A stretch of DNA of 32,000 bases from an uncultured Bacilli bacterium (lineage in GTDB: Bacteria > Bacillota_I > Bacilli_A > RF39 > UBA660), in the NCBI GenBank assembly GCA_934090795.1, contig CAKOJQ010000001.1, forward strand, positions 90,842 to 122,841, given 5' to 3'. The position numbers and the translations under genes are program-made. Shown piece after piece: positions 1 through 27,106 of this stretch. The notes under the pieces are model-generated. The model had not been told where the DNA came from. It saw only the letters and a list, made by a program, of their open reading frames with translations, and did no database searches. How positions within the stretch are numbered: position 1 is the stretch's first letter; every line of letters starts with the position of its first letter.

Positions 1-838
1 TTAATGAAGATTTTGGATTATGTTTTTTAAAATTAGCATTTACTAACTTTTCATCAAAATTAGCATAACAGTACTTACAAAAATGTTTACAAGAGTTATA
101 AACTCCTATATCAACCATTTGGACACAGTTACATTTTCGTTCTTTGCGAGCTACCCAATTTTTATATTTTTTACCTGTTAATTTATAGGCAAGTTCATGG
201 GATAAACAATCTGCTTTTTTAAATCCATATTCAGTTAAATTGCGTTCTTCAAAGCAGGTTTGGACTGTCATGCTATTATTTCTAGCAATCTTGCTAAAAC
301 TTGTACCTATTTCTTTATAATCATTTTCTGTAAATTCTTTATATTTTAAAATATTATAATTTTTTCGAACATTTTTATAATCATCTATAAACGATACGAT
401 AATTTGCTTAACATATCCATTTAATAAAGAACACATCTTAGCAAAAGCTTTTTTATGATAATCAAGATTATATTTATCACTAATAAAAATAGGATCATAT
501 CTTACATATAGATTATCTATTCCTACTAAACTTGATAACTTTTTGATTGCGTTAATTATTTTATTTTTATCTATAACATTTGGTTCAATATCATTTTTAT
601 ATGGAGTTAAAGTAACTTGAAAAATAATTGGTTTATCTATTTCTTTTAAATGATTTAACATTGGCAATGGATTTTTAGTGCAAAAAAGAATTAAATCAAC
701 ATCTTTAAAATTTATTCTACTTACTAATTTAGGATTGAACGGATTTCTAACATCGACAAATCCAGCTTTATATCTATTCATAAACCACTCGGAATAAAAA
801 GCAACTATATCAGTTCTTCCACTAACATTTAAAATCAT
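1..838 (-). CDS. DUF1848-like protein, 3' end cut by the window edge
   Basis: My own minus-strand translation from the ATG at 838-836 gives MILNVSGRTDIVAFYSEWFMNRYKAGFVDVRNPFNP... and runs to ...CNCVQMVDIGVYNSCKHFCKYCYANFDEK. The frame is still open at position 1. The N-terminal RTDIxAFYSEWF block and the C-terminal Cys cluster match my memory of DUF1848. The start overlaps the stop of the upstream ORF (ATGA). The ORF is absent from the supplied track because it is open-ended. Confidence 0.6.
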   Translation of the reverse strand, partial: MILNVSGRTDIVAFYSEWFMNRYKAGFVDVRNPFNPKLVSRINFKDVDLILFCTKNPLPMLNHLKEIDKPIIFQVTLTPYKNDIEPNVIDKNKIINAIKKLSSLVGIDNLYVRYDPIFISDKYNLDYHKKAFAKMCSLLNGYVKQIIVSFIDDYKNVRKNYNILKYKEFTENDYKEIGTSFSKIARNNSMTVQTCFEERNLTEYGFKKADCLSHELAYKLTGKKYKNWVARKERKCNCVQMVDIGVYNSCKHFCKYCYANFDEKLVNANFKKHNPKSSL

Positions 839-1146
839 TTCATATCTTCTTTCATGTAATCGGTATAAAAAGCTATTTTTTTATTTAATTTATTAGCATA
901 ATCTATTTCTAATTTAGTACTATCTCCAATATAATTATTAACATTAACTACCATTATTTCATCAGATAATTCAATTTTTTTAAAATGTTCTTCTTTTAAT
1001 AACCTTAATAGATTTTCAGTTCTTTCATTATTGCTTACTGGATATACTGGTGTTAAAACACAATTACCTTTTAAAGCAAGTTTTTCAGCTACATCCATCA
1101 TTTCTTTTGGATATTTTAAGCTTCCACATATTGTGATTATTTTCAT
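835..1146 (-). CDS. Small conserved hypothetical protein, possibly nucleoside 2-deoxyribosyltransferase-like
   Basis: 103-aa ORF starting MKIITICGSLKY, with a later SDEIMVVNVNNYIGDSTKLEIDYA block. It is translationally coupled to the downstream DUF1848-like gene. The family assignment is from memory only. Confidence 0.45.
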   Translation of the reverse strand: MKIITICGSLKYPKEMMDVAEKLALKGNCVLTPVYPVSNNERTENLLRLLKEEHFKKIELSDEIMVVNVNNYIGDSTKLEIDYANKLNKKIAFYTDYMKEDMK

Positions 1147-1242
1147 AGATATCCTCCTAATAAGTTTTATGTTTTAATTATATAGTATCAAACAAATATT
1201 CGTCAATATAATTTTAAAAAATATTAAGATTTTTTCTTAATA

Positions 1243-1821
1243 TCATTTATCCTTTACAACATTACACTTTCCACCATGATCATTAAAATAATCTTCTATA
1301 TGAGCAATTATTTTATTAACATCTTCATAACTATCAATGTCAGTATGATTCATAATATAAGCGTCTCCACCACTATTTATTACCTGATAATTTTTATTGT
1401 ATTCTGCTTCATAAACATATTCCTCATTATTTAACTGGCAACTAATTTTAGTCCTGCCTACTATATCATAATCTTTTCTAGGATTATCAACCATAAAAAA
1501 TATAACAAATAAGAATATCAAAGCAATAAAAACAATAATCATTACACCTAAAACTTTTAATATTTTGATTGTAATTCCTGCTAACTTTTCCGTGTTACTT
1601 ATTTTCTCAACTATAACATTATTAATATCGTTATCTACTAGTTCATCAATACTTATATTAAATATTTTAGATATAATCTTTACTTGATTAATATCAGGAG
1701 TTGTATCACCTGTTTCCCATTTGGAAATTGTTTGTCTAGCAACACCTACTTTTTCAGCTAATTCTTCTTGTGATAAATTATTCTTTTTTCTTAATTCAGC
1801 TATTTTTTTACCTAAATTCAT
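1243..1821 (-). CDS. XRE-family HTH transcriptional regulator with a central transmembrane segment
   Basis: The N-terminus LSQEELAEKVGVARQTISKWETGDTTPDINQVKIISKIFNISIDEL is a classic Cro/C1 HTH_3 domain. It is followed by a hydrophobic stretch, ITIKILKVLGVMIIVFIALIFLFVIFFMV. Confidence 0.8.
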   Translation of the reverse strand: MNLGKKIAELRKKNNLSQEELAEKVGVARQTISKWETGDTTPDINQVKIISKIFNISIDELVDNDINNVIVEKISNTEKLAGITIKILKVLGVMIIVFIALIFLFVIFFMVDNPRKDYDIVGRTKISCQLNNEEYVYEAEYNKNYQVINSGGDAYIMNHTDIDSYEDVNKIIAHIEDYFNDHGGKCNVVKDK

Positions 1822-1914
1822 CTTTTTCTTCTCCTTTTCTTAAATCAAAGATAACATTTTATTAATTAAAACACTACCAGTTATAAGTGGAATATACGCA
1901 CTAATTATTAACAT

Positions 1915-2121
1915 TTAAGATAATTTATCAAAAATAACATATTTTTCTTTTAAACTTATATTACTTACTTTATATCCATATAATTCTAATTCTTTCTTAT
2001 AATTTAAAAAAGAATGATCTAATTTAAAATCTAAAATATCATTAATATCATCAAATGCTAAAGTATATTTATCTTTGTTATTCTCTTTTATATAATTCCA
2101 TAACTTATCATATTTACTCAT
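1915..2121 (-). CDS. Small hypothetical protein
   Basis: 68-aa ORF (MSKYDKLWNYIKENNKDKYTLAFDDINDIL...). I cannot assign a function. Confidence 0.5.
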   Translation of the reverse strand: MSKYDKLWNYIKENNKDKYTLAFDDINDILDFKLDHSFLNYKKELELYGYKVSNISLKEKYVIFDKLS

Positions 2122-2181
2122 TTTAGACTCCTATTATTATAAATAAAAATTCACAAATTTATGTGAACTATTTTTTATTAA

Positions 2182-2255
2182 TGGTGCTGGTTAACAGAAT
2201 TGAACTGTTCGCTGAAGCTTACCATGCTTCTGTATTGCCACTATACTAAACCAGC
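2182..2255 (-). tRNA. tRNA-Thr (anticodon GGT)
   Basis: The minus-strand sequence GCTGGTTTAGTATAGTGGCAATACAGAAGCATGGTAAGCTTCAGCGAACAGTTCAATTCTGTTAACCAGCACCA (74 nt) folds by hand as a cloverleaf. Acceptor stem GCTGGTT/AACCAGC, D stem GTAT/ATAC, anticodon stem GAAGC/GCTTC with loop ATGGTAA, T stem AACAG/CTGTT with loop TTCAATT, and an encoded CCA end. Confidence 0.85.
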
Positions 2256-2307
2256 AACTCCAAATATATTATAGAAAATATTTTAATTATCTACAACATA
2301 TTTAATT

Positions 2308-3339
2308 CTATTTTTTTATTTTATGTTTTTGAGCATAGTTAGAAAGATTTCTAAAGTTATCATCATAAGGATAACTATTTAAAGAATTTTGCATCCATAT
2401 TTGTGACCAAGGTATACCTTGACTATGCAATTTTGCTACTCTTTGAGGATTCCTAAAATATTTTCCTTCTAAGTCACTTAAGTCTACACATCCTTCTTCA
2501 TCGTATAACTTGCATTGTAAATCTCCTTCTAATTTATCACACATATAAGCAAACATAGATTCTTTTGTTAAATGTGAATCAAATTCTATAAATAATTTTT
2601 CGATTATTTCACCATCTAATATATCTTTTAATATAATATGTACTGCTTCATGCTCTTTTCTTTCTTTTTCTTTTTTTGAAATATCATTTTCATCATAATC
2701 ACCAATAACTGTTTCACCTAATTCATGGATTGCAAGCATAAAAATAACTTTCATTATATCTATATCGTACCCGTATTCACTTTTCATAGCGATAGCTAAC
2801 ATTTGAACACCATAAATATGTTCAGCAACACTTTCTAGTCTTTCTCTTTTAACACCACATTTTTTCCAACCGGTTCTAATAATATTTTTTAATTTATTAC
2901 ACAAGATATAATATTTTAAAACTTTTTCTTCTTTTAAATTATTATTTTTAGAATTAATATCACCAATTATTTTAGTAAAATCCTCTTGTAAACTTTTAGT
3001 CGTCTCATATAGTACGAAGTAATTATAATCGCAAACATCTTCAAATTCATCACCTGAACAAATACATACAGGGATTTCTTTACTTACTTTATTTCTAAAA
3101 GTACTAATTATATAGCTAGCGTATGGTGATAAATCAAATGTATCACTACGAAGTGGCATATAATTATCTGTAATTAATAAATCATATTTTTTATCACTAT
3201 TTTTTAATGTTCTAAAATATGCTAGTGCATCCATACAATTATTTAATCTAAATATATCCAAATCTTCAACTACTGCTTTTAAATCTCTAACTATATTTTT
3301 ATATTTATAATCATCATCTTCTACTATTAAAATATTCAT
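2308..3339 (-). CDS. Response-regulator receiver domain fused to an HD-domain (YfbR-like, HD_3) phosphohydrolase
   Basis: The N-terminus MNILIVEDDDYKY...YDLLITDNYMP looks like a receiver domain (REC). The C-terminal 200 aa carry ESVAEHIYGVQMLAIAM and HELGETVIGD blocks. A strong SD (AGGAGG) precedes the ATG. Confidence 0.7.
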   Translation of the reverse strand: MNILIVEDDDYKYKNIVRDLKAVVEDLDIFRLNNCMDALAYFRTLKNSDKKYDLLITDNYMPLRSDTFDLSPYASYIISTFRNKVSKEIPVCICSGDEFEDVCDYNYFVLYETTKSLQEDFTKIIGDINSKNNNLKEEKVLKYYILCNKLKNIIRTGWKKCGVKRERLESVAEHIYGVQMLAIAMKSEYGYDIDIMKVIFMLAIHELGETVIGDYDENDISKKEKERKEHEAVHIILKDILDGEIIEKLFIEFDSHLTKESMFAYMCDKLEGDLQCKLYDEEGCVDLSDLEGKYFRNPQRVAKLHSQGIPWSQIWMQNSLNSYPYDDNFRNLSNYAQKHKIKK

Positions 3340-3367
3340 AATAAATACCTCCTATTTTAATAAATTT

Positions 3368-3388
3368 GTGGTTCCAAATTGGAACCGC
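3368..3388. repeat. Palindromic intergenic hairpin, copy 1
   Basis: GTGGTTCCAAATTGGAACCGC contains the perfect palindrome GGTTCCAA-A-TTGGAACC. It is 17/21 identical to the element at 5379-5399. Confidence 0.5.
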
Positions 3389-3391
3389 ATT

Positions 3392-4030
3392 TTATTTTCT
3401 TAATTTATGAGTTATTGCATAATTAGAAATACTTCTAAAATTATCATCGTATGGATAGATCTGTTGCCCAAATTTTAACCACATTTCTGACCAAGATGCA
3501 CCTGATGCAAGTAAATCATGAACTATTTTATTATTTAATGTGTTATTACCATCTTGCTTATTTAAATCTACACATCCTTCTTCGTCGTATAATTTACATT
3601 GTAAATCACATTCTAATTTATCACACATATAAGCAAACATAGCTTCTTTTGTTCTATGTGAATCAAATTCTAGAAATAAATTTTCAATTTCTTTTCCATC
3701 AAGTATTCCATCTAATATTTTAGAAACGGCTTCATGCTCTATTATTTCTTTTTCTTCTTTAGATATATCAAACTGAGTTAAATCACCTATAACTGTTTCG
3801 CCTAATTCATGAACAGCTAACATTAAAATAACTTTCATTATATCAATATCATAACTATATTCACTTTTGATGGCAATCGCTAACATTTGAACGCCATATA
3901 CATGTTCAGCAACACTTTCTAGTCTTTCTCTTTTAACATTCCATGTTTTCCAACCAGTTCTAATAACATCTTTTAATTTATTACATATAACATAGTAATT
4001 TAGAACTCTTTCTTCTTTATTTGTTTGCAT
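3392..4030 (-). CDS. HD-domain (YfbR-like, HD_3) phosphohydrolase, stand-alone paralog
   Basis: 212 aa, roughly three-quarters identical by eye to the C-terminal part of the 2308-3339 product. Both share RTGWK, ESVAEH.YGVQMLAIA, HELGETVIGD and FAYMCDKLE.DLQCKLYDEEGCVDL. Confidence 0.75.
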   Translation of the reverse strand: MQTNKEERVLNYYVICNKLKDVIRTGWKTWNVKRERLESVAEHVYGVQMLAIAIKSEYSYDIDIMKVILMLAVHELGETVIGDLTQFDISKEEKEIIEHEAVSKILDGILDGKEIENLFLEFDSHRTKEAMFAYMCDKLECDLQCKLYDEEGCVDLNKQDGNNTLNNKIVHDLLASGASWSEMWLKFGQQIYPYDDNFRSISNYAITHKLRK

Positions 4031-5454: not shown

Positions 5455-6294
5455 TTAAAACATTATTAATGGTTTAATTTTATCATCAAATGGTTCATAT
5501 AATGCGATATCTTCATCTTCATAAGTAAACAAAATATATTTGTTTGTTTTCATATTCATCACATTGCCATTTTTAATATGCTTATAATCTTCCTCATTAT
5601 CAATTTTCTTAGTAACAACATCTAAAAAATCAGTTAATTTTAATAATTTATAATTATCATTTTCAATATCATCCAAAGTATATACTTCATCGATATTAAA
5701 ATTACCAAGTGTTGTTCTAACTAAACTAGTCATTGTAGCATATGTTCCTAAAAATGCACCTATATCTCTAATTAGAGACCTAATATAAGTTCCTTTTGAT
5801 ACCTTACATTTAATAGTAATAATATCATCTTTAATATTTATAAGTTCAATATCATAAATATTTACTATTTTACTAGGTAGCTTAACATCAATATTGTTTC
5901 TTGCATATTCATATAACTTTTTACCATTAACCTTTACAGCGCTATAAATAGGAACTTCTTGATTATACGTTCCTTTAAAATGATTTAAAGCATTAATTAT
6001 TTCATCTTTACTAAAGTCTTTTTTGCCTTCTTTTAAAGCATTTCCTGTAATATCAAAAGTATCAGTTAAAATACCTAATTTAAAAGATGCAATATATTCT
6101 TTGTTATGCTCTACTAAAACATTAGCAAGCTTAGTGTATTTTCCTATTAAACAAACAAGTACTCCCTCCGCTAAGGGATCGAGAGTACCTATATGTCCAA
6201 CACTTTTAGTATTAAATTTACGACAAACCTTATTTACAACATCTCTTGATGTCATACCTTTTGGTTTATTTACAACTAGCAAACCATTATTCAT
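5455..6294 (-). CDS. truB: tRNA pseudouridine(55) synthase
   Basis: Contains LVVNKPKGMTSRDVV and GHIGTLDPLAEGVL motifs. I prefer the ATG at 6294 (MNNGLLVV...) over the TTG at 6318. It is the last gene of the rimP-nusA-infB-rbfA-truB order. Confidence 0.9.
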   Translation of the reverse strand: MNNGLLVVNKPKGMTSRDVVNKVCRKFNTKSVGHIGTLDPLAEGVLVCLIGKYTKLANVLVEHNKEYIASFKLGILTDTFDITGNALKEGKKDFSKDEIINALNHFKGTYNQEVPIYSAVKVNGKKLYEYARNNIDVKLPSKIVNIYDIELINIKDDIITIKCKVSKGTYIRSLIRDIGAFLGTYATMTSLVRTTLGNFNIDEVYTLDDIENDNYKLLKLTDFLDVVTKKIDNEEDYKHIKNGNVMNMKTNKYILFTYEDEDIALYEPFDDKIKPLIMF

Positions 6295-6637
6295 TTGCTT
6301 CAGCGTGAATCTCCTCAATTATTTCATCAATATGTTCTCCATACTCAGTAGATTCATCATAAACAAATCTAATTTCAGGAGTATTTCTTATATCAATTCT
6401 TTTAGCAAGTTCAGTTCTTAAAAATGAAGATGCATTGGTTAATTCTGCTTGAACTTCTTGTTTTTCATAATCTCCATAAAAAGTATAGAAAACTTTACAC
6501 ATTGATAAATCATTAGTAACTCTAACTTCAGTAATAGTTACACTTTTAATTATCTCATTATGAACTTCTTCATAAATTATACTTGATAATTCTCTTAAAA
6601 TTGAAGATGCAATTCTTTCTAATTTAATTTTACTCAT
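6287..6637 (-). CDS. rbfA: Ribosome-binding factor A
   Basis: 116 aa with an RbfA-like N-terminus ([14 protein letters not shown]) and the conserved position between infB and truB. Its start overlaps the infB stop (ATGA). Confidence 0.85.
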
Positions 6638-8736
6638 TTTCTTTTTACCTCAATCATTTCATATGTTTCAAAACAATCTCCTTCTTTTAAATCATTAAAG
6701 TTTTCGATTGTAATACCACATTCATAACCACTTTTAACTTCTTTAACAGTATCTTTTTCTCTTTGAACTGATGAAATTGTGCCATCATAAATTATTACAC
6801 CATCACGAATAACTCTTACTTTAGATTTATTCTTAATAACACCATTAGTTACAATACATCCCGCAATTGTACCAACTTTACTAAATTTAAATAATTTTTT
6901 GATTTCAGCGTTGCCAATAGTTTTTTCTTCGTATTCAGGCTCTAACATACCTTTCATGGCTGATTCCATTTCTTCAACTAATTTATAGATAATTTGATAT
7001 AATCTTATTTCAACATCATATCTCTTAGCAACTTCTTTAGTAATAGCAGATGGAACTACGTTAAAACCTATAACAATAGCATTAGATGCATTAGCAAGAA
7101 CTATATCACTTTCAGTAATTGTTCCTATTCCACTTCTAATTACTTTAATTTTAACGCCTTCAACATCAATTTTTTCTAAAGAGTTTTTAACTGCTTCTTC
7201 AGAACCTCTTACATCGCATTTTAAGACAACATTAATTTCTTTAACACCTGATTTAATCTTATTAAATAAATCATCAAAGCTAATTACTTCTTTTTTATTA
7301 TTTTTATTTTTAAAGGCAATTTCTCTTGCTTCAGCAATTTCCCTTGCTTGTTTTTCTGATTCAAAAGCCATGAATTTATCACCAGCTGATGGATTGCTTG
7401 CAAGACCAGTTATTTCAACAGGAGTACTTGGTCCAGCAGTTAAAATATTTTCACCCTTGTCATTACGAAGAGTTCTTACACGTCCATGAGTAGTACCTAC
7501 AACAATTGGATCACCTAGTCTTAAAGTACCATTTTGGATTAATAGGCTAGCAACTCCACCCATGTTTTTATCAATTCTTGATTCAATAACAGTACCAATT
7601 GCATATCTATTTGGATTTGCTTTAAGTTCACTTACCTCAGCAATAGCAATAACTGTTTCAAGTAGTTTATCAACACCCATACCAGTTTTAGCAGAAATAT
7701 TTACAAAAGGAACAGTTCCACCCCATGCTTCAGGAGTAATATTTAAAGCAGCCATTTCTTCCATAATTCTTTCTGGGTTAGCATCTGGTTTATCCATTTT
7801 ATTAACAGCAACTACAATAGGTACATTTGCAGATAAAGCATGATCTACTGCTTCTTTAGTTTGAGGCATAACCCCATCATCAGCAGCAACAACAATAATT
7901 ACGATATCAGTAATACTTGCTCCTCTTGCTCTCATTTCAGTAAATGCGGCATGTCCTGGAGTATCAATAAATGTTATTTTACTTCCGTTATAATCAATTT
8001 GATAAGCACCAATAGCTTGAGTTATACCACCTGCTTCTCCTTCAGCAACATTACTTGATCTAATGTAGTCTAAAAGAGTTGTTTTACCATGGTCAACATG
8101 TCCCATAACAGTTATTACAGGAGGTCTATTAATTAAATCATCCGGATTATCAATAATTTCATATTCTTCAAAGTTAGTAATATCTCTTGTTTCTTCTCTT
8201 TTTAATGTCATTCCATAGTCAAGAGCTAAAATTTCAGCTGTTTCAAAATCAATACTTTGATTTAAATTAAGCATTGTTCCTAAACTCATTAATTTCATAA
8301 TAATTTCATTATTACTCTTACCTAATTTAGCAGCAATATCTGCAACTGTATCTCCTTCTTTATAAAGAATAATATTCTCATCTTTCTTATTACTTTCTAA
8401 TTTAGATTTATTTTTATACATATCTTTCTTTTTATTTAAATATTCTAAATTATCTTTATTAACTTTATTATTCTTTTTCTTTAATTTTTGATTTTTTTCA
8501 CTATATTCATGATTATCTCCAAGTAATTCATCAACCGCATCATCTAAAGCATCAATTTCTTCAAATGAAGCATCACTGTCAGTACTAATTAAATTCATTG
8601 AGTTATCAAGCATAATAATTGCATCATCATCTAACATAAAGTTTCCATCTGTTGCTTTATAGCCTAAATCACGACATTTATTAAGTACTTCTTGGACTGT
8701 AAATCCCATTTCACTAGCATATTCTTTTATAGTCAT
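6634..8736 (-). CDS. infB: Translation initiation factor IF-2
   Basis: 700 aa with GTPase motifs [19 protein letters not shown] and NKMD, plus the IF-2 C-terminal domains. Confidence 0.97.
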
Positions 8737-10119: not shown

Positions 10120-10371
10120 CTATCCTCTTTCTTTACTTGATATATCAAGTACATATTCTTCTTCTATTAAATCCAACTTATCAATTATCGGATTTATAAT
10201 GTTTGTTGCTTCAACTATTGTATCCAAATCAATTCCATTAACTTTATCTAACACTATTTTTAAGAAATAGTAATTATTTTCATTAACAAAATCAACTGAA
10301 TCAACAATAATATCCATCTTATTCATTGGCTCTGTAATCTCTTTTTTAATAATATCTAACTTTTCTTTCAT
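10120..10371 (-). CDS. rimP: Ribosome maturation factor RimP, N-terminal domain only (short form)
   Basis: 83 aa directly upstream of nusA, ending ...YVLDISSKERG. The stop falls right at the place where RimP proteins carry the LEVSSPGxxRPL motif. The C-terminal Sm-like domain is absent. Confidence 0.6.
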   Translation of the reverse strand: MKEKLDIIKKEITEPMNKMDIIVDSVDFVNENNYYFLKIVLDKVNGIDLDTIVEATNIINPIIDKLDLIEEEYVLDISSKERG

Positions 10372-10520: not shown

Positions 10521-10814
10521 TCATTTGAAAATCTCACTATGACTACCCGTTGCTACTAACAAAAGGTTAAGTCTATTATCTTCATATTGATAAACTAATA
10601 GCCAATCTGGTTCTATATGACACTCTCTACAATTCATATAATATTTATCGTTTATTAATTTATGGTCTTTATATTTCGGCTCTAATTCTTCCCGTTTTGC
10701 CAATTTATCAATTACATAATCTATTTTATCTAAGTCTTTTCCTTGTTTTGATACCTTTTTATATTGCTTTTTAAAGTTGCTTGATAAAACTAAAATGCAT
10801 TTTTCGCTAGTCAT
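10521..10814 (-). CDS. yafQ: Type II toxin, YafQ/RelE family mRNA interferase
   Basis: KYKDHKLINDKYYMNCRECHIEPDWLLVYQYEDNRLNLLLVATGSHSEIF matches the YafQ pattern (KDH.L......R.CH..PDWLL.Y......L...RTGSHS.LF). It overlaps the antitoxin gene by 8 nt. Confidence 0.85.
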   Translation of the reverse strand: MTSEKCILVLSSNFKKQYKKVSKQGKDLDKIDYVIDKLAKREELEPKYKDHKLINDKYYMNCRECHIEPDWLLVYQYEDNRLNLLLVATGSHSEIFK

Positions 10815-11091
10815 TTATTAGAGCCTTTCTTAACGCTTTAACGTCTTTGTAACTTTCTAGTTCTACTTTACCATTTTTATAATCTTCTATTTCTTGTAAA
10901 GCTTCTAATAATTCTTTACTTGGTCTAGGATTAACCACCTCAAAAGGTACACCATCTTTATTAATTAATTGTTTTATTGCCATATTAACGTATGTACTCA
11001 TATTTAACCCTAAATTACTTAAAATACCAGTTGCTAGTTCTTTGTCTTTTCTATCTACTTGTACGCTTATAGCCGTTGTTAAACTTTCCAT
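10807..11091 (-). CDS. dinJ: Type II antitoxin, RelB/DinJ family
   Basis: ISVQVDRKDKELATGILSNLGLNMSTYVNMAIKQLINKDGVPFEV has a DinJ-like ribbon-helix-helix N-terminus. It lies immediately upstream of the toxin and overlaps it. Confidence 0.8.
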   Translation of the reverse strand: MESLTTAISVQVDRKDKELATGILSNLGLNMSTYVNMAIKQLINKDGVPFEVVNPRPSKELLEALQEIEDYKNGKVELESYKDVKALRKALIND

Positions 11092-11466: not shown

Positions 11467-12555
11467 CTAGTCGCAAGCGACAAATCTAAATTTTTCTAAA
11501 TATTTTATATTATTATAACAATTGCCTAAACTTAAATAAGCCTTAAAACATGTAATAGAACAATTTATATCATTAATGTTAATATTTTTATTAATCATTT
11601 TTCTTAACTTTCTTCTTTGTCTATATATAGTTTTTCTACTTGATATTAAATATATTTTTCCATTATTAAGTAATTTATAGTTCCATTTACAAAACATAAA
11701 TGAATTAGTAATAGAAATTATTTTAGTTTTATTTAAATTAATTTTTATATGTAATTTATCAGCAATAATTTTATAATTATTCAAAACATTTAAAGCCTCA
11801 TCATAAGTTATACAAAATAAGATACTATCATCCATGTAACGAATTATGGGAACATTTTTATTAATAATAAATTTATCTAGTTCATTAGGATACATTAATG
11901 CTTCTCTTTGAGCTATTTCAATACCAAGTCCTAAACCATCACCTATAAATAAATAATCTTCAATAATTTTTATTGTATTTTGATTTTTGATATATTTATT
12001 GTGAATCTCATGAATTACATCATGATTACAACTTTCAAAAAATTTACTATAATCTATTATCACTACATAACCATTTAAACCATATTTATTAAACCATTTT
12101 CTTAATATGGTTTTAACTCTTTTTATACTAAAACTAAATCCTTTATTTATTGTACTTGCACCATTATCATAAATTAATTTACTATCATATAACGGTATTA
12201 ATATCTCATTTGATATAACTTTATGTATTAATCGATCTTTAATATGTGGTGCATCAATGTTTCTTTCTTTTCCTCTTTCATTAATTTTAAACTTATATGT
12301 TTTATTAACAGTATAAGTATTATTTTTTATATTAGTACAAGTACTACCAACAATTGAAAACATATGTAATTTAAAATTTATAGTAGACTTTTTATATCCT
12401 ACATTTCTAGTACATTTTTTAGCATAATTATATACCTTATTAAAGGTAAAACATTTATTAACATCATCATAATTATTACTATTGATAATTAATTTATCTT
12501 CTCTTTTCTCTTTTCTTCTTTGATATCTTAATTCTTTTCTTTCTAAACTATTCAT
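11467..12555 (-). CDS. DGR-type reverse transcriptase
   Basis: 362 aa with RT motifs in order: IDAPHIKDRLIHKVI, VVIIDYSKFFESCNHD, GLGLGIEIAQREALMYPNELD, IIRYMDDSILFC (YMDD catalytic box) and LHIKINLNKTKI. It sits 257 nt downstream of the TR on the same strand. SD AAAGGA lies 5 nt before the ATG. Confidence 0.9.
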   Translation of the reverse strand: MNSLERKELRYQRRKEKREDKLIINSNNYDDVNKCFTFNKVYNYAKKCTRNVGYKKSTINFKLHMFSIVGSTCTNIKNNTYTVNKTYKFKINERGKERNIDAPHIKDRLIHKVISNEILIPLYDSKLIYDNGASTINKGFSFSIKRVKTILRKWFNKYGLNGYVVIIDYSKFFESCNHDVIHEIHNKYIKNQNTIKIIEDYLFIGDGLGLGIEIAQREALMYPNELDKFIINKNVPIIRYMDDSILFCITYDEALNVLNNYKIIADKLHIKINLNKTKIISITNSFMFCKWNYKLLNNGKIYLISSRKTIYRQRRKLRKMINKNININDINCSITCFKAYLSLGNCYNNIKYLEKFRFVACD

Positions 12556-12567
12556 TTAATTCCTTTC

Positions 12568-12593
12568 AAAAAAAATCTGATGTACTACATCAG
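12568..12593 (-). terminator. Terminator-like hairpin plus U8 tract just upstream of the RT start
   Basis: In minus sense CTGATGTAGTACATCAG (arms CTGATGT/ACATCAG) is followed by A then TTTTTTTT, then GAAAGGAATTAA-ATG of the RT. Confidence 0.45.
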
Positions 12594-12743
12594 GTAAATA
12601 TTTACAATAGATGAAAAATAAGTAGTCATATATACATCCATGTAATTTATTAAATATTTAAATATAAACCATGCAAGAAGCGTCCGGATGCTATAACCAT
12701 CAGATAAATTTAGAAGTATGATACTTCAAGGATAAACTAATCC

Positions 12744-12760
12744 TTTCCTATTTCAAAAGT
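12744..12760 (-). repeat. 17-nt direct repeat flanking the TR, RT-proximal copy
   Basis: TTTCCTATTTCAAAAGT on the plus strand, identical to 12983-12999. It lies 52 nt from the TR edge. Confidence 0.7.
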
Positions 12761-12812
12761 AGCACTAAAGAGTTAATTAAAACATCTTCCCATCACTTGT
12801 TCCACTAAAAGA

Positions 12813-12928
12813 GGAAATCTGGCGCGAAACCATTGTTGTTATTAGCATTATTATTGTTGACGTTACCGTTGTTATTCACATTTAAGAAATTATTGTTATT
12901 ATTGGAATTAGCCGCGCGAAGCCACCAC
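12813..12928 (-). repeat. DGR template repeat (TR)
   Basis: In sense (minus) orientation: TGGTGGCTTCGCGCGGCT AAT TCC AAT AAT AAC AAT AAT TTC TTA AAT GTG AAT AAC AAC GGT AAC GTC AAC AAT AAT AAT GCT AAT AAC AAC AAT GGTTTCGCGCCAGATTTCC. It has 19 AAY codons, is non-coding, and aligns without gaps to 14286-14401 (offset 1473). Confidence 0.93.
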
Positions 12929-12982
12929 GAAAATAAAAACATTAATAACTAAAACTAAGGCTTACTCGTAATATACATTAGT

Positions 12983-12999
12983 TTTCCTATTTCAAAAGT
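12983..12999 (-). repeat. 17-nt direct repeat flanking the TR, accessory-gene-proximal copy
   Basis: TTTCCTATTTCAAAAGT on the plus strand, identical to 12744-12760. It lies 54 nt from the TR edge and covers the last codons and the TGA stop of the 12992-13540 ORF. Confidence 0.7.
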
Positions 13000-13540
13000 T
13001 TTCAAAAATTATTTTTTTGACAAACTTAGAAACCAATAAATCAATTATTTGATCATCATCTATATCTTTATCATTTATTTTCTTTAATTTTTTATTATCA
13101 CTTTCTAAAACCCCTTTTAATAATTTATATTGTTTATCATAAAGACTACCCAATATTTCTAATCTCTTATCAAGCATTTCTCTAGCTTCTGTTGTTGTAT
13201 ATGATTTACCATTTTTTCTCCCAAAACAATTTTTAGGATTGGTATATAACACCTCTACCATATCAGTTAATTTTTTATTTAATATATCTAAACAACTTTT
13301 AGATAGTAAAATAAACACTCTTCTAAGTAATATATCTTCATATCTTGTTGGATTAATACTATTAGCCATAGATACTAACTCAGCTTGTTTACACACATAC
13401 TTTTCGATCGGTATTATATAAATATTAGTCCATTTTTTATTTAGTTTAGAAGATAATCTTAATGTTTCAACTTGAATTACATAAGCATTATCCACATATT
13501 CTAAACCATTTGGCTTTCTTTTGAATTTGGGAATTGACAT
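12992..13540 (-). CDS. DGR accessory protein 1 (occupies the Avd position; basic, probably helical; family unverified)
   Basis: 182-aa ORF between the target gene and the TR, Lys-rich. It aligns without gaps over at least 56 aa to the adjacent ORF (NIYxIP...Y..K...YEDI...LS..CL..L..K..DM). Confidence 0.6.
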   Translation of the reverse strand: MSIPKFKRKPNGLEYVDNAYVIQVETLRLSSKLNKKWTNIYIIPIEKYVCKQAELVSMANSINPTRYEDILLRRVFILLSKSCLDILNKKLTDMVEVLYTNPKNCFGRKNGKSYTTTEAREMLDKRLEILGSLYDKQYKLLKGVLESDNKKLKKINDKDIDDDQIIDLLVSKFVKKIIFENF

Positions 13541-13555
13541 AAAACTTACTCTTTT

Positions 13556-14098
13556 CTAAAACAAAATTTTGATTACTTCTTCACTATAAATATTTAATAT
13601 ATTAGTAATATTAATTTTTTTATTTTTATATCTTAATAATATAAGTTCATTAATTCTTATTAATATATTAATATTTTTAAATATTCTTTTATATAAAGAA
13701 TTAACATAATTATATTTATCTATTAATTCTTTATTATATTTTTTAATATAATTTATTTTTTTATATTTTCTTTTACGACTTATACTTTCATAGTTATCAT
13801 ATATTCTATTAAATTGTAAATCGTACATATCTAAAAATTTATAATATAAAACTTTTAGATAACATCTTGATAGTTTTATCAAAAAATTACAAAATATTAT
13901 ATCTTCATAATTTTTTATTTTATAATTAATTAAATATTTAAATATATTATATTCTTTTACTAAATAATTACTTACAGGTATTTGATAAATGTTTGATTTA
14001 TTTATTTTTAATTTAGATACCAAAAATAACATTTCGCATTTTATATTAAAACTATCTTTATAAACATTTTTTATTAATTTATTATATTTATCTTTCAT
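13556..14098 (-). CDS. DGR accessory protein 2 (divergent tandem paralog of accessory protein 1)
   Basis: 180-aa ORF that stays open through extremely AT-rich DNA, where stops should be frequent. It shares the NIYQIP, YEDI, LSRCYL and FLDM blocks with the 12992-13540 product. I see no obvious SD. Confidence 0.5.
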   Translation of the reverse strand: MKDKYNKLIKNVYKDSFNIKCEMLFLVSKLKINKSNIYQIPVSNYLVKEYNIFKYLINYKIKNYEDIIFCNFLIKLSRCYLKVLYYKFLDMYDLQFNRIYDNYESISRKRKYKKINYIKKYNKELIDKYNYVNSLYKRIFKNINILIRINELILLRYKNKKINITNILNIYSEEVIKILF

Positions 14099-14111
14099 AA
14101 TATTTTATGCA

Positions 14112-14143
14112 CCCATCTGATTTCCTTACGTCAATCAGATGGG
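14112..14143 (-). other. Perfect 11-bp stem-loop just upstream of accessory ORF 2
   Basis: CCCATCTGATT-(10 nt)-AATCAGATGGG. On the plus strand it is followed by a T-rich run. In minus sense it ends 13 nt before the ATG at 14098. Confidence 0.5.
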
Positions 14144-14168
14144 ATTTTATTTTTTTAGTTTATTTTAC

Positions 14169-14209
14169 GGGCCACCTTTTTTACTCACTGTCGTTCGCGG
14201 AGGTGGCCC
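14169..14209 (-). other. GC-rich stem-loop downstream of the VR and target-gene stop
   Basis: GGGCCACCT-(23 nt)-AGGTGGCCC, a 9-bp stem with 7 G-C pairs in otherwise AT-rich DNA. It lies 66 nt past the stop codon and 77 nt past the VR edge. Confidence 0.5.
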
Positions 14210-14274
14210 TTAGGAACCGATATTCCTATCTTTATTTTTATCTATATATTATGCTTTACATATAATTTACATTT

Positions 14275-15681
14275 TTATCCGATGCGGAAAGCTGGCGCGA
14301 AACCAATGTTGCTATAAGCAGAACGATGGGTGACGTTACCGGCGTCACTCACACTAAAGAAAGTAGAGCCACTAGTGGAATAAGCCGCGCGAAGCCACCA
14401 CCAACTGCCGGAACTTGATGTTAGTGTTTTCTTTATGGCTGCAGTATAACTATTTGTTGTTACTTCTTGGTCTTTATAATAATCTAATTGTCTTGTATTA
14501 TTATAAGCTGTATCTCTTGCAGATAATGATGTCGTTGATGGTGATGCATCTTCCCATACTTCATGTCCACTTAATAAATATATTTTATCGGTTGATGTGA
14601 AGTTTGTTTCTCCACTGGTACTTCCATGGCCTGATACTACATTTGTTTTTATTATTACATCTTGTAAATCACTTGGTAATTTCTTTAAGAAATCACCATT
14701 GGCATAAGTTCTCATTGCACTTGCTGGCCATCCATCTACATTCCATCCGTAATTATATTGTGTTCCTTTATACTCTCCTGATGGATTCATGTTTCTATTT
14801 TCTACTATATCTACAAACTCAACAACAAATCCACAAGCCGTCTGGGAAAAGTTTAAGTCATTACATTCTTTTGGTGTTGTGTTATTGGCAACGCGCACTG
14901 TATAATTTTTTCCACCTATTTCTACTTCTTTTTCTGACCCTACTGGATATGCTTCAAGTTGTCCATCTTGTACTACTGCTGCTATTGTTTCCCATGAATC
15001 TGCTGCAAATGTTGTTGGTGTTGGTGGTTCATAATTTACAACTATCTTTCCATTTATAGTAGCACCTTTTTCACTATCTTGATTTAATCCTGTATCAGGA
15101 AATTGAATTATTAAATTAAATTCAATACTTTGTTCATTTTGATTTGCTTTAAATTCTCCAGTAACCATTTCTGTATATTTATTTCCTTTTTTTAATGTTC
15201 CATGAGTATATCCTGTATAAGTATCATTTCCTGGTATTGTTTGATTTAAATAATCTTTTTTTGTTTTACCATCTTCTGGTGTTACTACATAGTTTGCCGT
15301 TACATTTTCATTTGTTGTTGTTCTTTTTATATAGTAATGTATTTGTCCATCACTAAATGTTGATTTATATTTTAGTCCTACTTTATACGGCATCACTAAT
15401 CCATCGCCTGCAGCCATTCCTGTTGCTGTGTTTGTTCCTGTTAATGAGAATGTTTTATTAACAAGAATTTTATCACTTGGTTGAATATTTGTTACAGGTA
15501 ATATATTATCTGTTCCATCATTATAAGTTATTAACATCTTTCCTGTATCAATTGTTGCTTGGGCTGTTGATCCTTGATTGTTAAATGCACTAAAGTATGC
15601 AAATGTGATGCCACCAAAAACAAGTAATATACTTACAATTGTAATAATTATAACCATCGTGACTAATTTGTTTTCTTTCAT
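14275..15681 (-). CDS. DGR target: secreted or surface protein with a SipW/TasA-type signal peptide and a C-terminal WWLR...GFxPxF variable ligand-binding domain (DUF6273-like / C-type-lectin-like)
   Basis: I prefer the ATG at 15681 (MKENKLVTMVIIITIVSILLVFGGITFAYFSA...) because GAGGAAGG lies 9 nt upstream. The track start at 15747 is a TTG that reads through the promoter poly-G. The C-terminus is ...KIYLLSGHEVW...SWWWLRAAYSTSGSTFFSVSDAGNVTHRSAYSNIGFAPAFRIG. The VR covers the last 39 or so codons. Confidence 0.85.
   Translation of the reverse strand: MKENKLVTMVIIITIVSILLVFGGITFAYFSAFNNQGSTAQATIDTGKMLITYNDGTDNILPVTNIQPSDKILVNKTFSLTGTNTATGMAAGDGLVMPYKVGLKYKSTFSDGQIHYYIKRTTTNENVTANYVVTPEDGKTKKDYLNQTIPGNDTYTGYTHGTLKKGNKYTEMVTGEFKANQNEQSIEFNLIIQFPDTGLNQDSEKGATINGKIVVNYEPPTPTTFAADSWETIAAVVQDGQLEAYPVGSEKEVEIGGKNYTVRVANNTTPKECNDLNFSQTACGFVVEFVDIVENRNMNPSGEYKGTQYNYGWNVDGWPASAMRTYANGDFLKKLPSDLQDVIIKTNVVSGHGSTSGETNFTSTDKIYLLSGHEVWEDASPSTTSLSARDTAYNNTRQLDYYKDQEVTTNSYTAAIKKTLTSSSGSWWWLRAAYSTSGSTFFSVSDAGNVTHRSAYSNIGFAPAFRIG
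14286..14401 (-). repeat. DGR variable repeat (VR)
   Basis: Gapless 116-nt alignment to the TR gives 92 identities and 24 mismatches. All mismatches are at plus-strand T in the TR, which is A in the sense strand. 24 of 41 TR adenines are substituted and 0 of 75 other positions. Both ends are identical GC-rich anchors (TGGTGGCTTCGCGCGGCT and GGTTTCGCGCCAG). Confidence 0.93.
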
Positions 15682-15709
15682 ATTTTTCATCCTTCCTCTA
15701 CTATAGAAA

Positions 15710-15740
15710 ATTATACTATTAAAACACCCCCCCCAGTCAA
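15710..15740 (-). promoter_or_regulatory. Sigma-A-type promoter of the DGR target gene with a G8 tract in the spacer
   Basis: In minus sense: TTGACT-GGGGGGGGTGTTTTAATAG-TATAAT, a 19-nt spacer. The -35 is at 15735-15740, the G8 tract at 15727-15734, and the -10 at 15710-15715. Confidence 0.65.
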
Positions 15741-15952
15741 TATTCAATTTTTTTGAATTTATATTTATCTTTGATAATTATAAATTCAAAAAATAAAATA
15801 TATAAAAAATAGAAAGTTTGTGCAAAATGATTTGCATAACTTTTTTTAATTGTGTAAAATAATTTGCAAATTATCGAAAGAATATTAAGACAAAATAAAA
15901 GAAGAGATCCATCATTTGCAAAGCCTTTTCTCTTCCTTCAAAATATTAATAT

Positions 15953-16010: not shown

Positions 16011-17173
16011 CTATTTTTCTTTTTTAAAATTAAGTTTTGGAGTAATGTAGTTATCCATAATAAGCATTAATAAAATAGATAATAGAATTGTAATTACATA
16101 TGTTAATATATAAATTGTATGTAATCCTTTTACTGTTGTATTGTTAATATTACAAACTTTTTGAAGAACACCAATTATTGGATAATGTAACATATAAATA
16201 TAAAGTGCTAACTTACCAGGATATTTCCAAATAGGTTTATTTAATAAAGATGTTAAATAATCTTTGTTTAATAAAACTAAGAAAACAATAATTAAACATA
16301 AACCATTAATAGTTGCAAATGTGAATGTTGCACCCCAAATCATATGATAAATAACAATACATGTACATACAGCATTTACAATAGTTAAAAGAATTTTACC
16401 TAATTTACTAAACTCTTTATTACTAATTTTTTCAATAAGTTCATAAAGAACACATCCTAAACCAATTGTAAAGAATGCTTGAATAGCAGCTTCGCTAATA
16501 CCGGTAATGGGAAATTATACCACATTGGACTAATACCGTTAACATGGAAATATCCATATACAATTATAAATCCAACTGGGAATATTAAACCTACTATTAA
16601 ATCTTCACATTTTTCTAATAAATAGTAAATTACATAACTAACTACTAATAAGCTTGAGATAAACCAAAGAGGTCCATTCATTAACATGTGTCTTCCTGCT
16701 GACATTAAACCATAAGTATTATTACCAATACCTAAGCCAGTAACAACACATCCTAGCCATTCCCATAAACAATCAATAGCAATTCTTGGCCATTCATTAA
16801 TTGGAAATCCATTATAAATGTTAGTTAGTACAAAACCAAATAATAGACAAATTAAGAATGCAGGATATAAACCTTTTAATCTTCTTAAAAGATATTTTCC
16901 AGCTCCTTCTCTAGGTGCTAATTCAGATTTACTTTCTTTCCTTTCTAATTTACTCTTTTTAAATTTTATCATTAAGAAATATCCTGTAATTAAATAGAAA
17001 ATAATAATTACATCAAGACTTCCTTTGAACATTACACCACCAGTAGGCACTCCATTTTTTGTAATTAACCATGGACTAGTATGTCAATACATCATTGGAT
17101 AAATGATATAAACATGAACTAGAATGAAGATCATACAAGAAACAAAACGCCAAAATTCAACAGCATAATTCAT
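16011..17173 (-). pseudogene. Acyltransferase family 3 (O-acyltransferase) gene disrupted by one in-frame TGA and one frameshift
   Basis: From the ATG at 17173 the frame reads MNYAVEFWRFVSCMIFILVHVYIIYPMMY-TGA-HTSPWLITKNGVPTGGVMFKG... The frame is lost near 16505-16515 and continues in another frame as ITGISEAAIQAFFTIGLGCVLYELIEK...YHMIWGATFTF... to the stop at 16011. The product is hydrophobic and multi-pass throughout. Confidence 0.7.
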
Positions 17174-17190
17174 TTGTTTTATGTTTTAGG

Positions 17191-17916
17191 TTAGTTCAAT
17201 GTTTTGGTTTTACCTTTTTTATACTCTAAATATTCTGATAATTTCATTTCTTGATATTTAAAATTATATGGATTATAAAATAGTATTAAATCTTGTCTTT
17301 CAATATATAATTTTTTTACGGTTTCTAAACTTAGAGTATTATAAATATTTCTAGTAAAACGATATATAGGAACTATACTTAAAAAGTAATTTAATATTTT
17401 TTCTCTATCATCAATTATTTCACCAGTACTTTTATTTACAAGTACTAATATATTTATTTTTTCTGGTGGTATTATATCGTATGTGTAGCAATCTTCGGGA
17501 TATAAATCAATAACGTTAGGAATATCTTTAAACATTAAGTATACTCCATCTCCTAAATATTCATTAAAACTTTCATATTGCATAGTGTTTTTAGTCGCTT
17601 CTAGCGTTTCAATCATTGATTCTATTTCTTTTAACTTTTTTATATTGGGTTTGGCTTCATTTATATTTTTGCGACATGCTTTTATTTCCTTTTCATAATA
17701 CTCTATAAGTTCTTTTCCAGATTCTCCAGTATGAGTATTATAATAATATAAAAGATTTGTATATAATAATATGGCGTTATTAATTCCAGATGAAAAGAAT
17801 ATAGCACACTTTTTATCACCTATACTTTGACATCTAGTCCCATTTTGAGGAACTAATCCATTTTTACTTATGTTATCTAAATTACTGTAATTGGTAAAAT
17901 GATAATATTTATTCAT
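17191..17916 (-). CDS. Hypothetical protein (N-terminus faintly resembles Tpt1/DarT-type ADP-ribosyltransferase-fold proteins)
   Basis: I prefer the ATG at 17916 with SD GAGGTG. The N-terminus is MNKYYHFTNYSNLDNISKNGLVPQNGTRCQSIGDKKCAIFFSSG. Function is not established. Confidence 0.55.
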   Translation of the reverse strand: MNKYYHFTNYSNLDNISKNGLVPQNGTRCQSIGDKKCAIFFSSGINNAILLYTNLLYYYNTHTGESGKELIEYYEKEIKACRKNINEAKPNIKKLKEIESMIETLEATKNTMQYESFNEYLGDGVYLMFKDIPNVIDLYPEDCYTYDIIPPEKINILVLVNKSTGEIIDDREKILNYFLSIVPIYRFTRNIYNTLSLETVKKLYIERQDLILFYNPYNFKYQEMKLSEYLEYKKGKTKTLN

Positions 17917-18051
17917 AATACACCTCAAATATATAAATTTGTTCGATTATTATACCATAAAATCAATTTAATTTCAATTAGCCAAAATAGGATATTATTT
18001 TTAGGTATATAATTATTAAAAATTATTAAGATATTATTAGGAGAAAAAATT

Positions 18052-26028: not shown

Positions 26029-27048
26029 TTATCTATCTTTTGATTTATATAAAACTTTTACATTTATTAAAATTAATACAAATGAGATTAACAATGGTAA
26101 GTAAAAGATAAATAAACGGTTTAAAATCATTCCATGAATCGCTAATGTATCAAAGATAGTTAAATATAATATGCTAGTAATATATTCGCTTATTCCTGTT
26201 TGACCGGGAAGTATACATAATTCTAAAGATATTTGAACAAATAATTGAAGTAATAAAATATCAAAATAATTAAGAACTATATTTGTATTTAAACTTCTAT
26301 AAATAAAATATATTATCGAAAACAATATTGTTCTTTGAATAAATACCAAGATAGTTGTTAGAAATAATATACCAACATTTTCTTTTAAATAGCTTGCTTC
26401 ATCTATGTATGATTTTGTTATTTCATCTATTTTAGTATTATAATCTATATTTTTATTTGTAAATTTATTATATATTTTATAAATAATTGTAAGTATTTTA
26501 CTAATTAATTTTTGATTATACATTAGAAGTAAACAAATAACTACTATAAAAATATCGTAAATAAATCCAAGAAAGAATAATATCTTAACTAAAGAACCAT
26601 TAGTAAAAACATAATCTGGTTTGAAAATTAAAATTAATATTCCTCCAACAATTAAAAATAATTTAAATAATATTGTATTAAGTATTAATGAAATCATACT
26701 CTTTTTATTTGATAATTTATCTTGATTCATGTAATAAAGTTGAAGAGGTTGACCACCAGTAGAACCAGGTGTTATACCACTAAAGAAAAACTCAACTAAA
26801 GAATAATGAAAACATCTTATTAATGATATTTTTTCATTCATTGAATTAAACATTACTTTAAAATATAATCCTTCCAAGAAGAAATATAAAAATACTCCTA
26901 AAATTATTATTATATAGTAACTTATATTTATCATTTTTAAACACAGTAGTATATCAGATACTTTATAAGTTAAAAAAAGAATCGTAAAAGTAACTGTAAA
27001 TAATAAGATGAAAATAATTGATGATATTATAATTTTTTTATCTTTCAT
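26029..27048 (-). CDS. Flippase-like membrane protein (lysylphosphatidylglycerol-synthase TM-region family, UPF0104)
   Basis: Multi-pass membrane protein with FFSGITPGSTGGQPLQLYYM, typical of the LPG_synthase_TM family. Confidence 0.6.
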   Translation of the reverse strand: MKDKKIIISSIIFILLFTVTFTILFLTYKVSDILLCLKMINISYYIIIILGVFLYFFLEGLYFKVMFNSMNEKISLIRCFHYSLVEFFFSGITPGSTGGQPLQLYYMNQDKLSNKKSMISLILNTILFKLFLIVGGILILIFKPDYVFTNGSLVKILFFLGFIYDIFIVVICLLLMYNQKLISKILTIIYKIYNKFTNKNIDYNTKIDEITKSYIDEASYLKENVGILFLTTILVFIQRTILFSIIYFIYRSLNTNIVLNYFDILLLQLFVQISLELCILPGQTGISEYITSILYLTIFDTLAIHGMILNRLFIFYLPLLISFVLILINVKVLYKSKDR

Positions 27049-27106
27049 ACTAATCTATCCTCACTAATGTTAAGTATAGCATCTTAATTTAAGAAGATAA
27101 ATAGAA

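Follow-up and report, generated by a model that had tools for sequence, protein, structure and literature searches.

Two diverged paralogs, likely of Avd type, in the accessory slot of a chromosomal diversity-generating retroelement from an uncultured gut Bacilli bacterium

What stands in for Avd in a diversity-generating retroelement (DGR) that carries two genes in the slot of one? The question is raised by a stretch of 32,000 nucleotides from an uncultured Bacilli bacterium (assembly GCA_934090795.1, contig CAKOJQ010000001.1, positions 90,842 to 122,841 of the forward strand), hereafter the window, which encodes a DGR with two consecutive open reading frames (ORFs) in the place of avd. We call these ORFs and their counterparts in related loci ORF180 (F180 type) and ORF182 (F182 type). 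It is likely that a duplication gave rise to both, as diverged accessory proteins of Avd type. The two genes are:

13556..14098, minus strand: ORF180, 180 residues, isoelectric point (pI) 9.74, GC content 11.4%, the fast-evolving upstream paralog of F180 type
12992..13540, minus strand: ORF182, 182 residues, pI 9.39, GC content 23.9%, the conserved, putative Avd equivalent of F182 type, in the family PHROG 30516

An initial annotation, made from the sequence alone, described two back-to-back ORFs of 182 and 180 residues in the Avd slot, and they are present exactly as claimed. They lie in the same frame, 15 nt apart. The annotation also took them for paralogs. BLASTP agrees, with 33% identity over a gapless alignment of 79 residues (E = 2e-9), and in an alignment with their homologs the two proteins are collinear from end to end. 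The motifs NIY.IP, YEDI, K..DM and SLY are shared as it had listed them, but the cysteine of its “LS..CL..L” falls in different columns of the two proteins, a minor error. The extreme richness in Asn, Lys, Ile and Tyr that it noted in the upstream copy is real and accompanied by the very low GC content given above; half of the nucleotides of ORF180 (50%) are A. Finally, ORF180 was said to have no visible Shine-Dalgarno (SD) sequence. This holds for the window, where there is no good SD and only a weak SD-like GGGTG upstream of the gene, but the orthologs in the related loci L010, L012 and L051 do carry one.

The surrounding element is a chromosomal DGR with all the canonical parts, and its host is a very AT-rich uncultured gut Bacilli or “Tenericutes” bacterium. 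On the minus strand, the cassette reads target gene with its variable repeat (VR), ORF180, ORF182, template repeat (TR), RT-2 spacer RNA and reverse transcriptase (RT). The parts other than the two paralogs are:

14275..15747, minus strand: DGR target (variable) gene, 490 residues, with a C-terminal DUF6273 domain (Pfam, E = 5.5e-19) and an N-terminus that is a membrane anchor or signal; a surface protein
14284..14404, minus strand: VR, within the target gene at its 3' end; identity to the TR 79%
14099..14274, minus strand: GC-rich structured intergenic region with three hairpins, from the stop codon of the target gene to ORF180
12811..12931, minus strand: TR, a repeat of 121 nt
12555..12755, minus strand: RT-2 spacer RNA (Rfam RF03077), in the gap between TR and RT
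11467..12555, minus strand: DGR RT, 362 residues, with a YMDD motif; matches RVT_1 (Pfam) and a group II RT-like model (NCBIfam)

In the aligned block, TR and VR differ at 26 positions, 24 of which are TR adenines and the other two lie at the edges of the block. Hence, this is a bona fide and recently active DGR. The substitutions affect 24 of the 41 adenines of the TR. Searching the window with the TR revealed no second VR. The spacer matched the RF03077 model over its full length, with 52 bits for a gathering score of 40 (E = 2.2e-9), and presumably corresponds to the cDNA-priming Sp RNA of BPP-1. The mechanically called ORF of the target gene opens at TTG 15747. There is an alternative ATG at 15681, preceded by the SD AGAGGAAGGA and followed by the hydrophobic anchor, which is probably the real start. 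The region between the target gene and ORF180 folds with a minimum free energy of -51.7 kcal/mol (z = -7.4 relative to shuffled sequences). One of its hairpins, GGGCCACCT...AGGTGGCCC, is conserved in L012, and a second one, CCCATCTGATT...AATCAGATGGG, is an insertion that the window has in common with L017 only. In both loci, the insertion displaces an SD-like AGGTGG from the start of ORF180. A target-recognition cruciform, a terminator and a translational control element of ORF180 are all possible roles for these hairpins.

ORF182 matched PHROG 30516, a family of “unknown function”, with residues 1-153 aligned to positions 1-153 of the 154 of the profile (E = 3.4e-21). The cluster of ORF182 is labelled “hypothetical protein” at NCBI. 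ORF180 had no match to PHROG 30516 at E ≤ 1, and neither did the other F180-type proteins, which are tied to the family only by the profiles of ORF182-type proteins (E = 1e-10 to 1e-14) and by a search with a combined profile. An exhaustive profile search among 1.8 billion representatives yielded 144 clusters, and 61 out of 69 family representatives matched PHROG 30516. Most members of the family are 150-190 residues long, start with MSVLKxKRxESKAEFV, and share the motifs RLSARYSRL and NPxGxF. Their median pI is 9.1.

Standard models fail to recognise this family. At E ≤ 1, ORF180 and ORF182 matched nothing in Pfam and NCBIfam, including the curated models PF22296 (bAvd), PF05635 (23S-IVS) and TIGR02436, which agrees with the initial statement that the motifs of the Avd family are absent. 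None of the 69 family members matched any of these three models at E ≤ 0.01. As a positive control, bAvd matched PF22296 at 7e-36. Neither the two ORFs nor the family profile gave a meaningful match in sequence searches of the PDB. We therefore did not find the combination of one ORF with an Avd match and a decaying partner.

Is the family nevertheless a branch of Avd? AlphaFold2 models of the two proteins, each predicted singly, have the same layout of four long helices and a short C-terminal helix (pLDDT of 82 and 89), i.e., both are predicted to be four-helix bundles of the kind that the initial annotation proposed to look for. The top matches of the ORF182 model among natural proteins of the PDB, using Foldseek, were 2gsc (probability 1.0, TM-target 0.65) and 2rld (TM-target 0.76). 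In the viral library BFVD it matched a member of the family (E = 5e-5) and several “Avd-like” proteins (TM-target 0.6-0.77). The model of ORF180 also retrieved 2gsc, among designed bundles. The family of 2gsc and 2rld (S23-IVS) has been named as a structural relative of Avd in the preprint describing the cryo-EM structure of bRT-Avd (10.1101/2023.10.23.563531), and Avd proteins are basic, with a pI of 9.5 ± 0.7 (Wu et al., PMC5758913). As for sequence, bAvd falls into phrog_3206 (“Avd protein of DGR”, E = 9e-29), and this profile was weakly matched by three of the 69 family members at E ≤ 1e-3 (best 2.5e-5). The matches of P0160 (1e-4) and P0171 (3e-4) are weak but collinear, e.g., residues 2-98 of P0160 align with positions 5-98 of the profile. 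Because of the predicted fold, the matches to S23-IVS and “Avd-like” proteins, the basic charge and these collinear hits, the family is best read as a very divergent branch of Avd, lying outside the curated Avd families. The initial annotation had suggested a new and larger accessory family. This stands as regards a family of 150-190 residues tightly linked to DGRs, but not as regards the fold, the models being four-helix bundles.

The distribution of the family shows how unusual the pair is. Scanning IMG/VR with a sub-alignment of the family gave at least 391 viral loci, of which we retrieved and examined 80. In 79 of these, a homolog of the RT of the window lies no more than a few hundred bases downstream of the family gene. 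The retrieved viral cassettes have a single family gene each. A scan of one genome per species gave 32 loci, all of them in metagenome-assembled genomes (MAGs) of uncultured gut Bacilli, “Tenericutes” or Firmicutes CAG:582. Most consist of a target gene with DUF6273, one ORF182-type gene and an RT, the exceptions being decayed cassettes. Homologs are thus not found mostly outside DGRs. The contigs with the distant representative P0111 are too short for neighbouring genes to be seen. The association with DGRs and the single genes next to RTs, in phage and genome loci alike, indicate that the family is tightly linked to DGRs and that one copy is the ancestral state.

Both genes of the tandem pair are intact in the window, L010, L012-L015 and L051. 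They are also intact in L017, where the ORF182 ortholog is 95% identical and the RT contains a TGA nonsense codon. Decayed remnants of the pair were found in L001, L006/7, L011, L035 and L041. The initial survey question, i.e., whether related DGRs conserve the duplicated arrangement, thus has a positive answer within one small subclade of gut Bacilli DGRs, to which the pair is confined; elsewhere a single copy is the rule, in 79 of the 80 phage loci and in all intact cassettes from the genomes of other species. The length of about 180 residues, which had also been singled out, is no special feature, since the single-copy relatives are equally 150-190 residues long. The duplication is. In a neighbour-joining tree, the ORF182 proteins of the tandem loci group together, as the sister clade of the proteins from single-copy Bacilli loci. 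The F180 proteins are monophyletic, with long branches, and their internal topology is congruent with that of the clade of their F182 partners. This points to one duplication followed by co-inheritance.

If ORF180 is a duplicate of a gene that apparently suffices elsewhere, is it kept? The F180 frame is open over 169-191 codons in all intact tandem loci, which include at least six divergent loci, and the chance that a frame of 180 codons remains open at the composition of ORF180 is about 2e-11 per locus. Where synonymous substitutions are unsaturated, the ratio of non-synonymous to synonymous rates (dN/dS) is 0.33-0.35 for F180, 0.08-0.14 for F182 and about 0.25 for the RT. Neutrality was rejected for the 110 N-terminal codons of F180 (Fisher test, p = 1e-5 to 1e-2). 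ORF180 evolves about three times faster than ORF182. Relative to L010, the identity of the orthologs is 33% for ORF180 and 63% for ORF182, and at that distance the dN/dS of ORF180 is about 1. Among the loci examined, no intact DGR had ORF180 alone broken. Given the open frame, the dN/dS below 1 and this lack of isolated inactivation, sequence comparisons indicate that ORF180 is retained under relaxed constraint, as an old lineage-restricted duplicate that is still under selection.

The pattern of motif changes is asymmetric. The F180 proteins lack the N-terminal basic tail MS[IV]PKFKRKPxGxxYV, almost invariant among the other members of the family. In place of the NPxxCFxRKNGKxY loop that joins helices 3 and 4, they have a longer one rich in Lys, Asn and Tyr. 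Other changes affect both tandem copies: the SARW/YxR motif (SARWAR) at the junction of helices 1 and 2 is lost, and the Arg of MDMVR (R96) became Glu or Asp. The positions that are still common to both copies (SKL, IY..P, ED, LS...L..L..K..DM) map to helices.

The lineage is also rich in decaying cassettes. Many genomes of relatives have lost 2.1 kb at the site between ClpP and RelB/YafQ-RimP-NusA (L002-L005 and L132-L134, against window 11597-13775), with an A-rich microhomology at the junction (AGAAGAAA..TAAGAAAAAT). ORF182, the TR and most of the RT are gone from these genomes and the target gene is left frozen, while ORF180 is cut at codon ~110 and continues in frame into the final ~50 codons of the RT. 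The resulting F180::RT chimeras make up the clusters P0041, P0045-46, P0051-58 and P0063. We considered that selection might keep these chimeras and rejected it: some are broken by stop codons (L134), i.e., they are decaying remnants. The element in the window is one of the few intact copies.

Single in-frame nonsense codons or frameshifts are also frequent in the accessory gene or the RT of related cassettes from gut Bacilli MAGs (L017-L048; for example L024 5983-6540, L025 139-696, L017 6992-8068, L020 6966-8063, and L038). Recoding of stop codons (TGA as Trp, TAG as Gln) was rejected, because TAA, TGA and TAG occur mixed, at Gln, Gly and other positions. The in-frame stops are ordinary inactivating mutations or MAG errors. 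One MAG contig, L028, has the module of target and accessory gene twice (109-3624 and 5734-7643), with identical scores of the target ORFs, which corresponds to a duplicated cassette or an assembly repeat.

How could two such proteins work together? In BPP-1, the RT (bRT) is inactive without Avd, which is a homopentamer forming a basic pentameric barrel. The N-terminal extension of the RT touches two of the five Avd protomers, and the stem-loop of the spacer RNA (Sp) is contacted by all five (10.1101/2023.10.23.563531). With only two of five protomers at the RT, the homopentamer already works asymmetrically. By analogy with this Bordetella phage, ORF182 would be the Avd equivalent, a basic oligomeric barrel binding the RT and the spacer RNA, and thereby licensing cis-primed, adenine-mutagenic cDNA synthesis; its single-copy orthologs must fill that role. 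ORF180 would derive from a tandem duplication of an ORF182-type gene in the ancestor of the subclade, with co-inheritance ever since, and both paralogs would build the barrel of the tandem subclade or modulate it. The motifs contacting RNA and RT would persist in ORF182, and ORF180 would be a specialised protomer, either structural or imposing asymmetry. We hold this account as a whole, i.e., a divergent and duplicated Avd with both paralogs in the barrel or modulating it, with moderate confidence. That ORF180 joins the assembly of ORF182 as a specialised protomer, or modulates it, is the most likely of its roles by this analogy, because it kept the core, shed the putative ligand-contacting motifs, and changed together with ORF182 after the duplication. 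The more specific proposal that the two proteins form a mixed oligomer, raised in the initial annotation, is plausible but tentative, and we lean somewhat against it. In its strongest form, which we think rather unlikely, an obligate hetero-oligomer with divided labour would replace the Avd homopentamer, with the tail and loop of ORF182 contacting RNA and RT and the non-binding ORF180 protomers hard-wiring an asymmetry that appears in the BPP-1 homopentamer only upon binding, and PHROG 30516 would be a major overlooked class of Avd.

Several observations weigh against this account. The E-values of the Foldseek matches are weak (0.04-1), four-helix bundles readily match each other, and the solved structure of bAvd (4DWL) is absent from the top 50 matches. 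The proteins of the window themselves have no sequence match to any Avd model, phrog_3206 included, and hhalign found no signal between the alignments of the family and of bAvd, the latter being too narrow (Neff of 2.1) to make this a strong negative. In the single-copy relatives an ORF182-type protein apparently suffices alone. ORF180 combines a weak SD in the window, an extreme drift towards AT and a relaxed constraint, and the many decaying cassettes among relatives show that the lineage tolerates the loss of the whole system.

These observations leave room for other explanations. ORF180 might act outside the RT complex, either as a regulator or as a dominant-negative decoy, which would restrain mutagenesis by titrating away ORF182, the RT or the RNA of the DGR, or at the target site, e.g., on the structured DNA or RNA beside the VR. 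In favour of such roles, ORF180 lost the two most conserved motifs of the family while keeping its helical core, and the purifying selection on it is weaker than that on ORF182. Its weak SD in the window suggests low or different expression, and the gene directly follows the conserved hairpins that lie downstream of the VR. Yet such a regulator occurs in no known DGR, and a shared complex would account no less well for the co-divergence with ORF182 and for the fact that both copies changed in parallel, so we regard this explanation as unlikely. It is also conceivable that ORF180 is a functionless duplicate in slow decay, whose frame is open incidentally, for instance because translation through it helps the expression of ORF182. 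Its composition and SD, its low conservation relative to L010 with a dN/dS near 1, and its lost motifs are what one would expect of such a gene, in a family where single-copy DGRs are the norm and in a lineage where even deletion chimeras of F180 and RT stay open for a while. A frame open in at least six divergent loci against the odds given above, a dN/dS significantly different from 1 at unsaturated distances, the retention of core positions and of a fold predicted with high confidence, and the failure to find an intact DGR with ORF180 alone broken make this decidedly improbable.

A further alternative concerns the family rather than the duplicate. PHROG 30516 could be unrelated to Avd, an independent helical accessory that replaced it and supports the RT by another mechanism. 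The silence of Pfam, NCBIfam, PDB sequence searches and hhalign is compatible with this, as are three hallmarks foreign to bAvd, namely the MSVLKxKRxESKAEF tail, the NPxG.F loop and the extra C-terminal helix of the Bacilli clade. Against an unrelated origin, the position in the cassette, the basic charge and the predicted fold class are all those of Avd, the closest structural matches that bear a name are Avd-like or S23-IVS proteins, two members have collinear if weak matches to the PHROG of bAvd, and the RT and its RT-2 spacer are of the ordinary DGR kind. We consider such an origin very unlikely. A divergent Avd, duplicated once and with both copies in or around the barrel, remains the best explanation.

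Other features of the window and of its relatives were also noted. Between ClpP and the DGR target, ~2.3 kb are absent from L002-L005 (window 16011-17928, minus strand); they contain an ORF of 245 residues without family match and an Acyl_transf_3 gene split in two ORFs of 197 and 110 residues, probably a pseudogene. A RelB/YafQ type II toxin-antitoxin pair lies directly downstream of the RT (10521-11091, minus strand), and is kept at the same position in relatives lacking the DGR core. Upstream of nusA, rimP (10120-10371, minus strand) encodes only 83 residues, which comprise just the RimP_N domain. As the gene has this short form in every relative, it looks like a feature of the lineage and not a truncation. 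Related loci (L001, L006-L009) have a second DGR or its remnant between the genes for a DHH phosphoesterase and an LPG-synthase, with a DUF6273 target, a broken ORF180-type gene, an ORF182-type gene and no RT. The corresponding site of the window (26029-28828) encodes a protein of 573 residues (27107-28828, minus strand) with the same N-terminal module and a C-terminal WYWTLS... motif, but neither a VR nor a Pfam match.

The closest known system is Avd of BPP-1, with the bAvd-like proteins and the S23 superfamily (PF22296, PF05635; structures 4DWL, 2GSC, 2RLD). It occupies the same slot, between the target with its VR and the TR and RT, and resembles the family in being small, basic and an up-down four-helix bundle, as predicted here for the family. 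Some members of the family weakly and collinearly match the PHROG profile that includes bAvd. The family differs by its length (150-190 residues, against ~128 in bAvd), by the silence of the curated Avd models, by the N-terminal basic tail MS[VI][LP]K.KR, by an NPxG/CF loop joining helix 3 to helix 4, and by the additional C-terminal helix in the Bacilli clade. The window has two diverged paralogs where BPP-1 has one gene, and the family is known here from sequences and predicted models. The phage members of PHROG 30516, on contigs of gut phages, are single genes of ~150 residues that immediately precede the RT of a DGR, whereas the proteins of the window are encoded in a cellular chromosome, have a C-terminal extension and form a tandem pair.

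There is a precedent for two copies: a survey counted, without analysing it, one DGR with two avd genes out of 372 (Wu et al. 2018, PMC5758913). The pair described here is in addition conserved, co-diverging, and asymmetric in motifs and rate. The same survey described other small genes between or beside the core components of DGRs, CH1, MSL and HRDC. CH1 is found in avd-less DGRs of lineage 3, has 160-169 residues and is acidic, with a pI of 4.7 ± 0.2 (Wu et al. 2018, PMC5758913). By this description it is set apart from the proteins of the window (pI of 9.4 and 9.7), and we rejected an identity with it. The starts MSV, MSI and MSL of the family raised the suspicion that it might be MSL. This was also rejected, as MSL stands for MutS-like, and neither ORF180 nor ORF182 matched a MutS or HRDC domain in Pfam or NCBIfam at E ≤ 1.

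What is new here is thus a widespread and unannotated Avd-like family that escapes the standard models, and a conserved asymmetric tandem pair of it in one lineage. The family is common in the DGRs of gut phages and gut Bacilli, and surveys or engineering efforts based on the available models will miss the accessory gene. Should PHROG 30516 be a major class of Avd, then many DGRs surveyed as “Avd-less” would be wrongly so. To our knowledge, Avd, which is essential for reverse transcription in DGRs, has been studied in one phage only. The diverged pair provides a natural system for dissecting the surfaces of Avd that are needed for RT binding, RNA binding and assembly.

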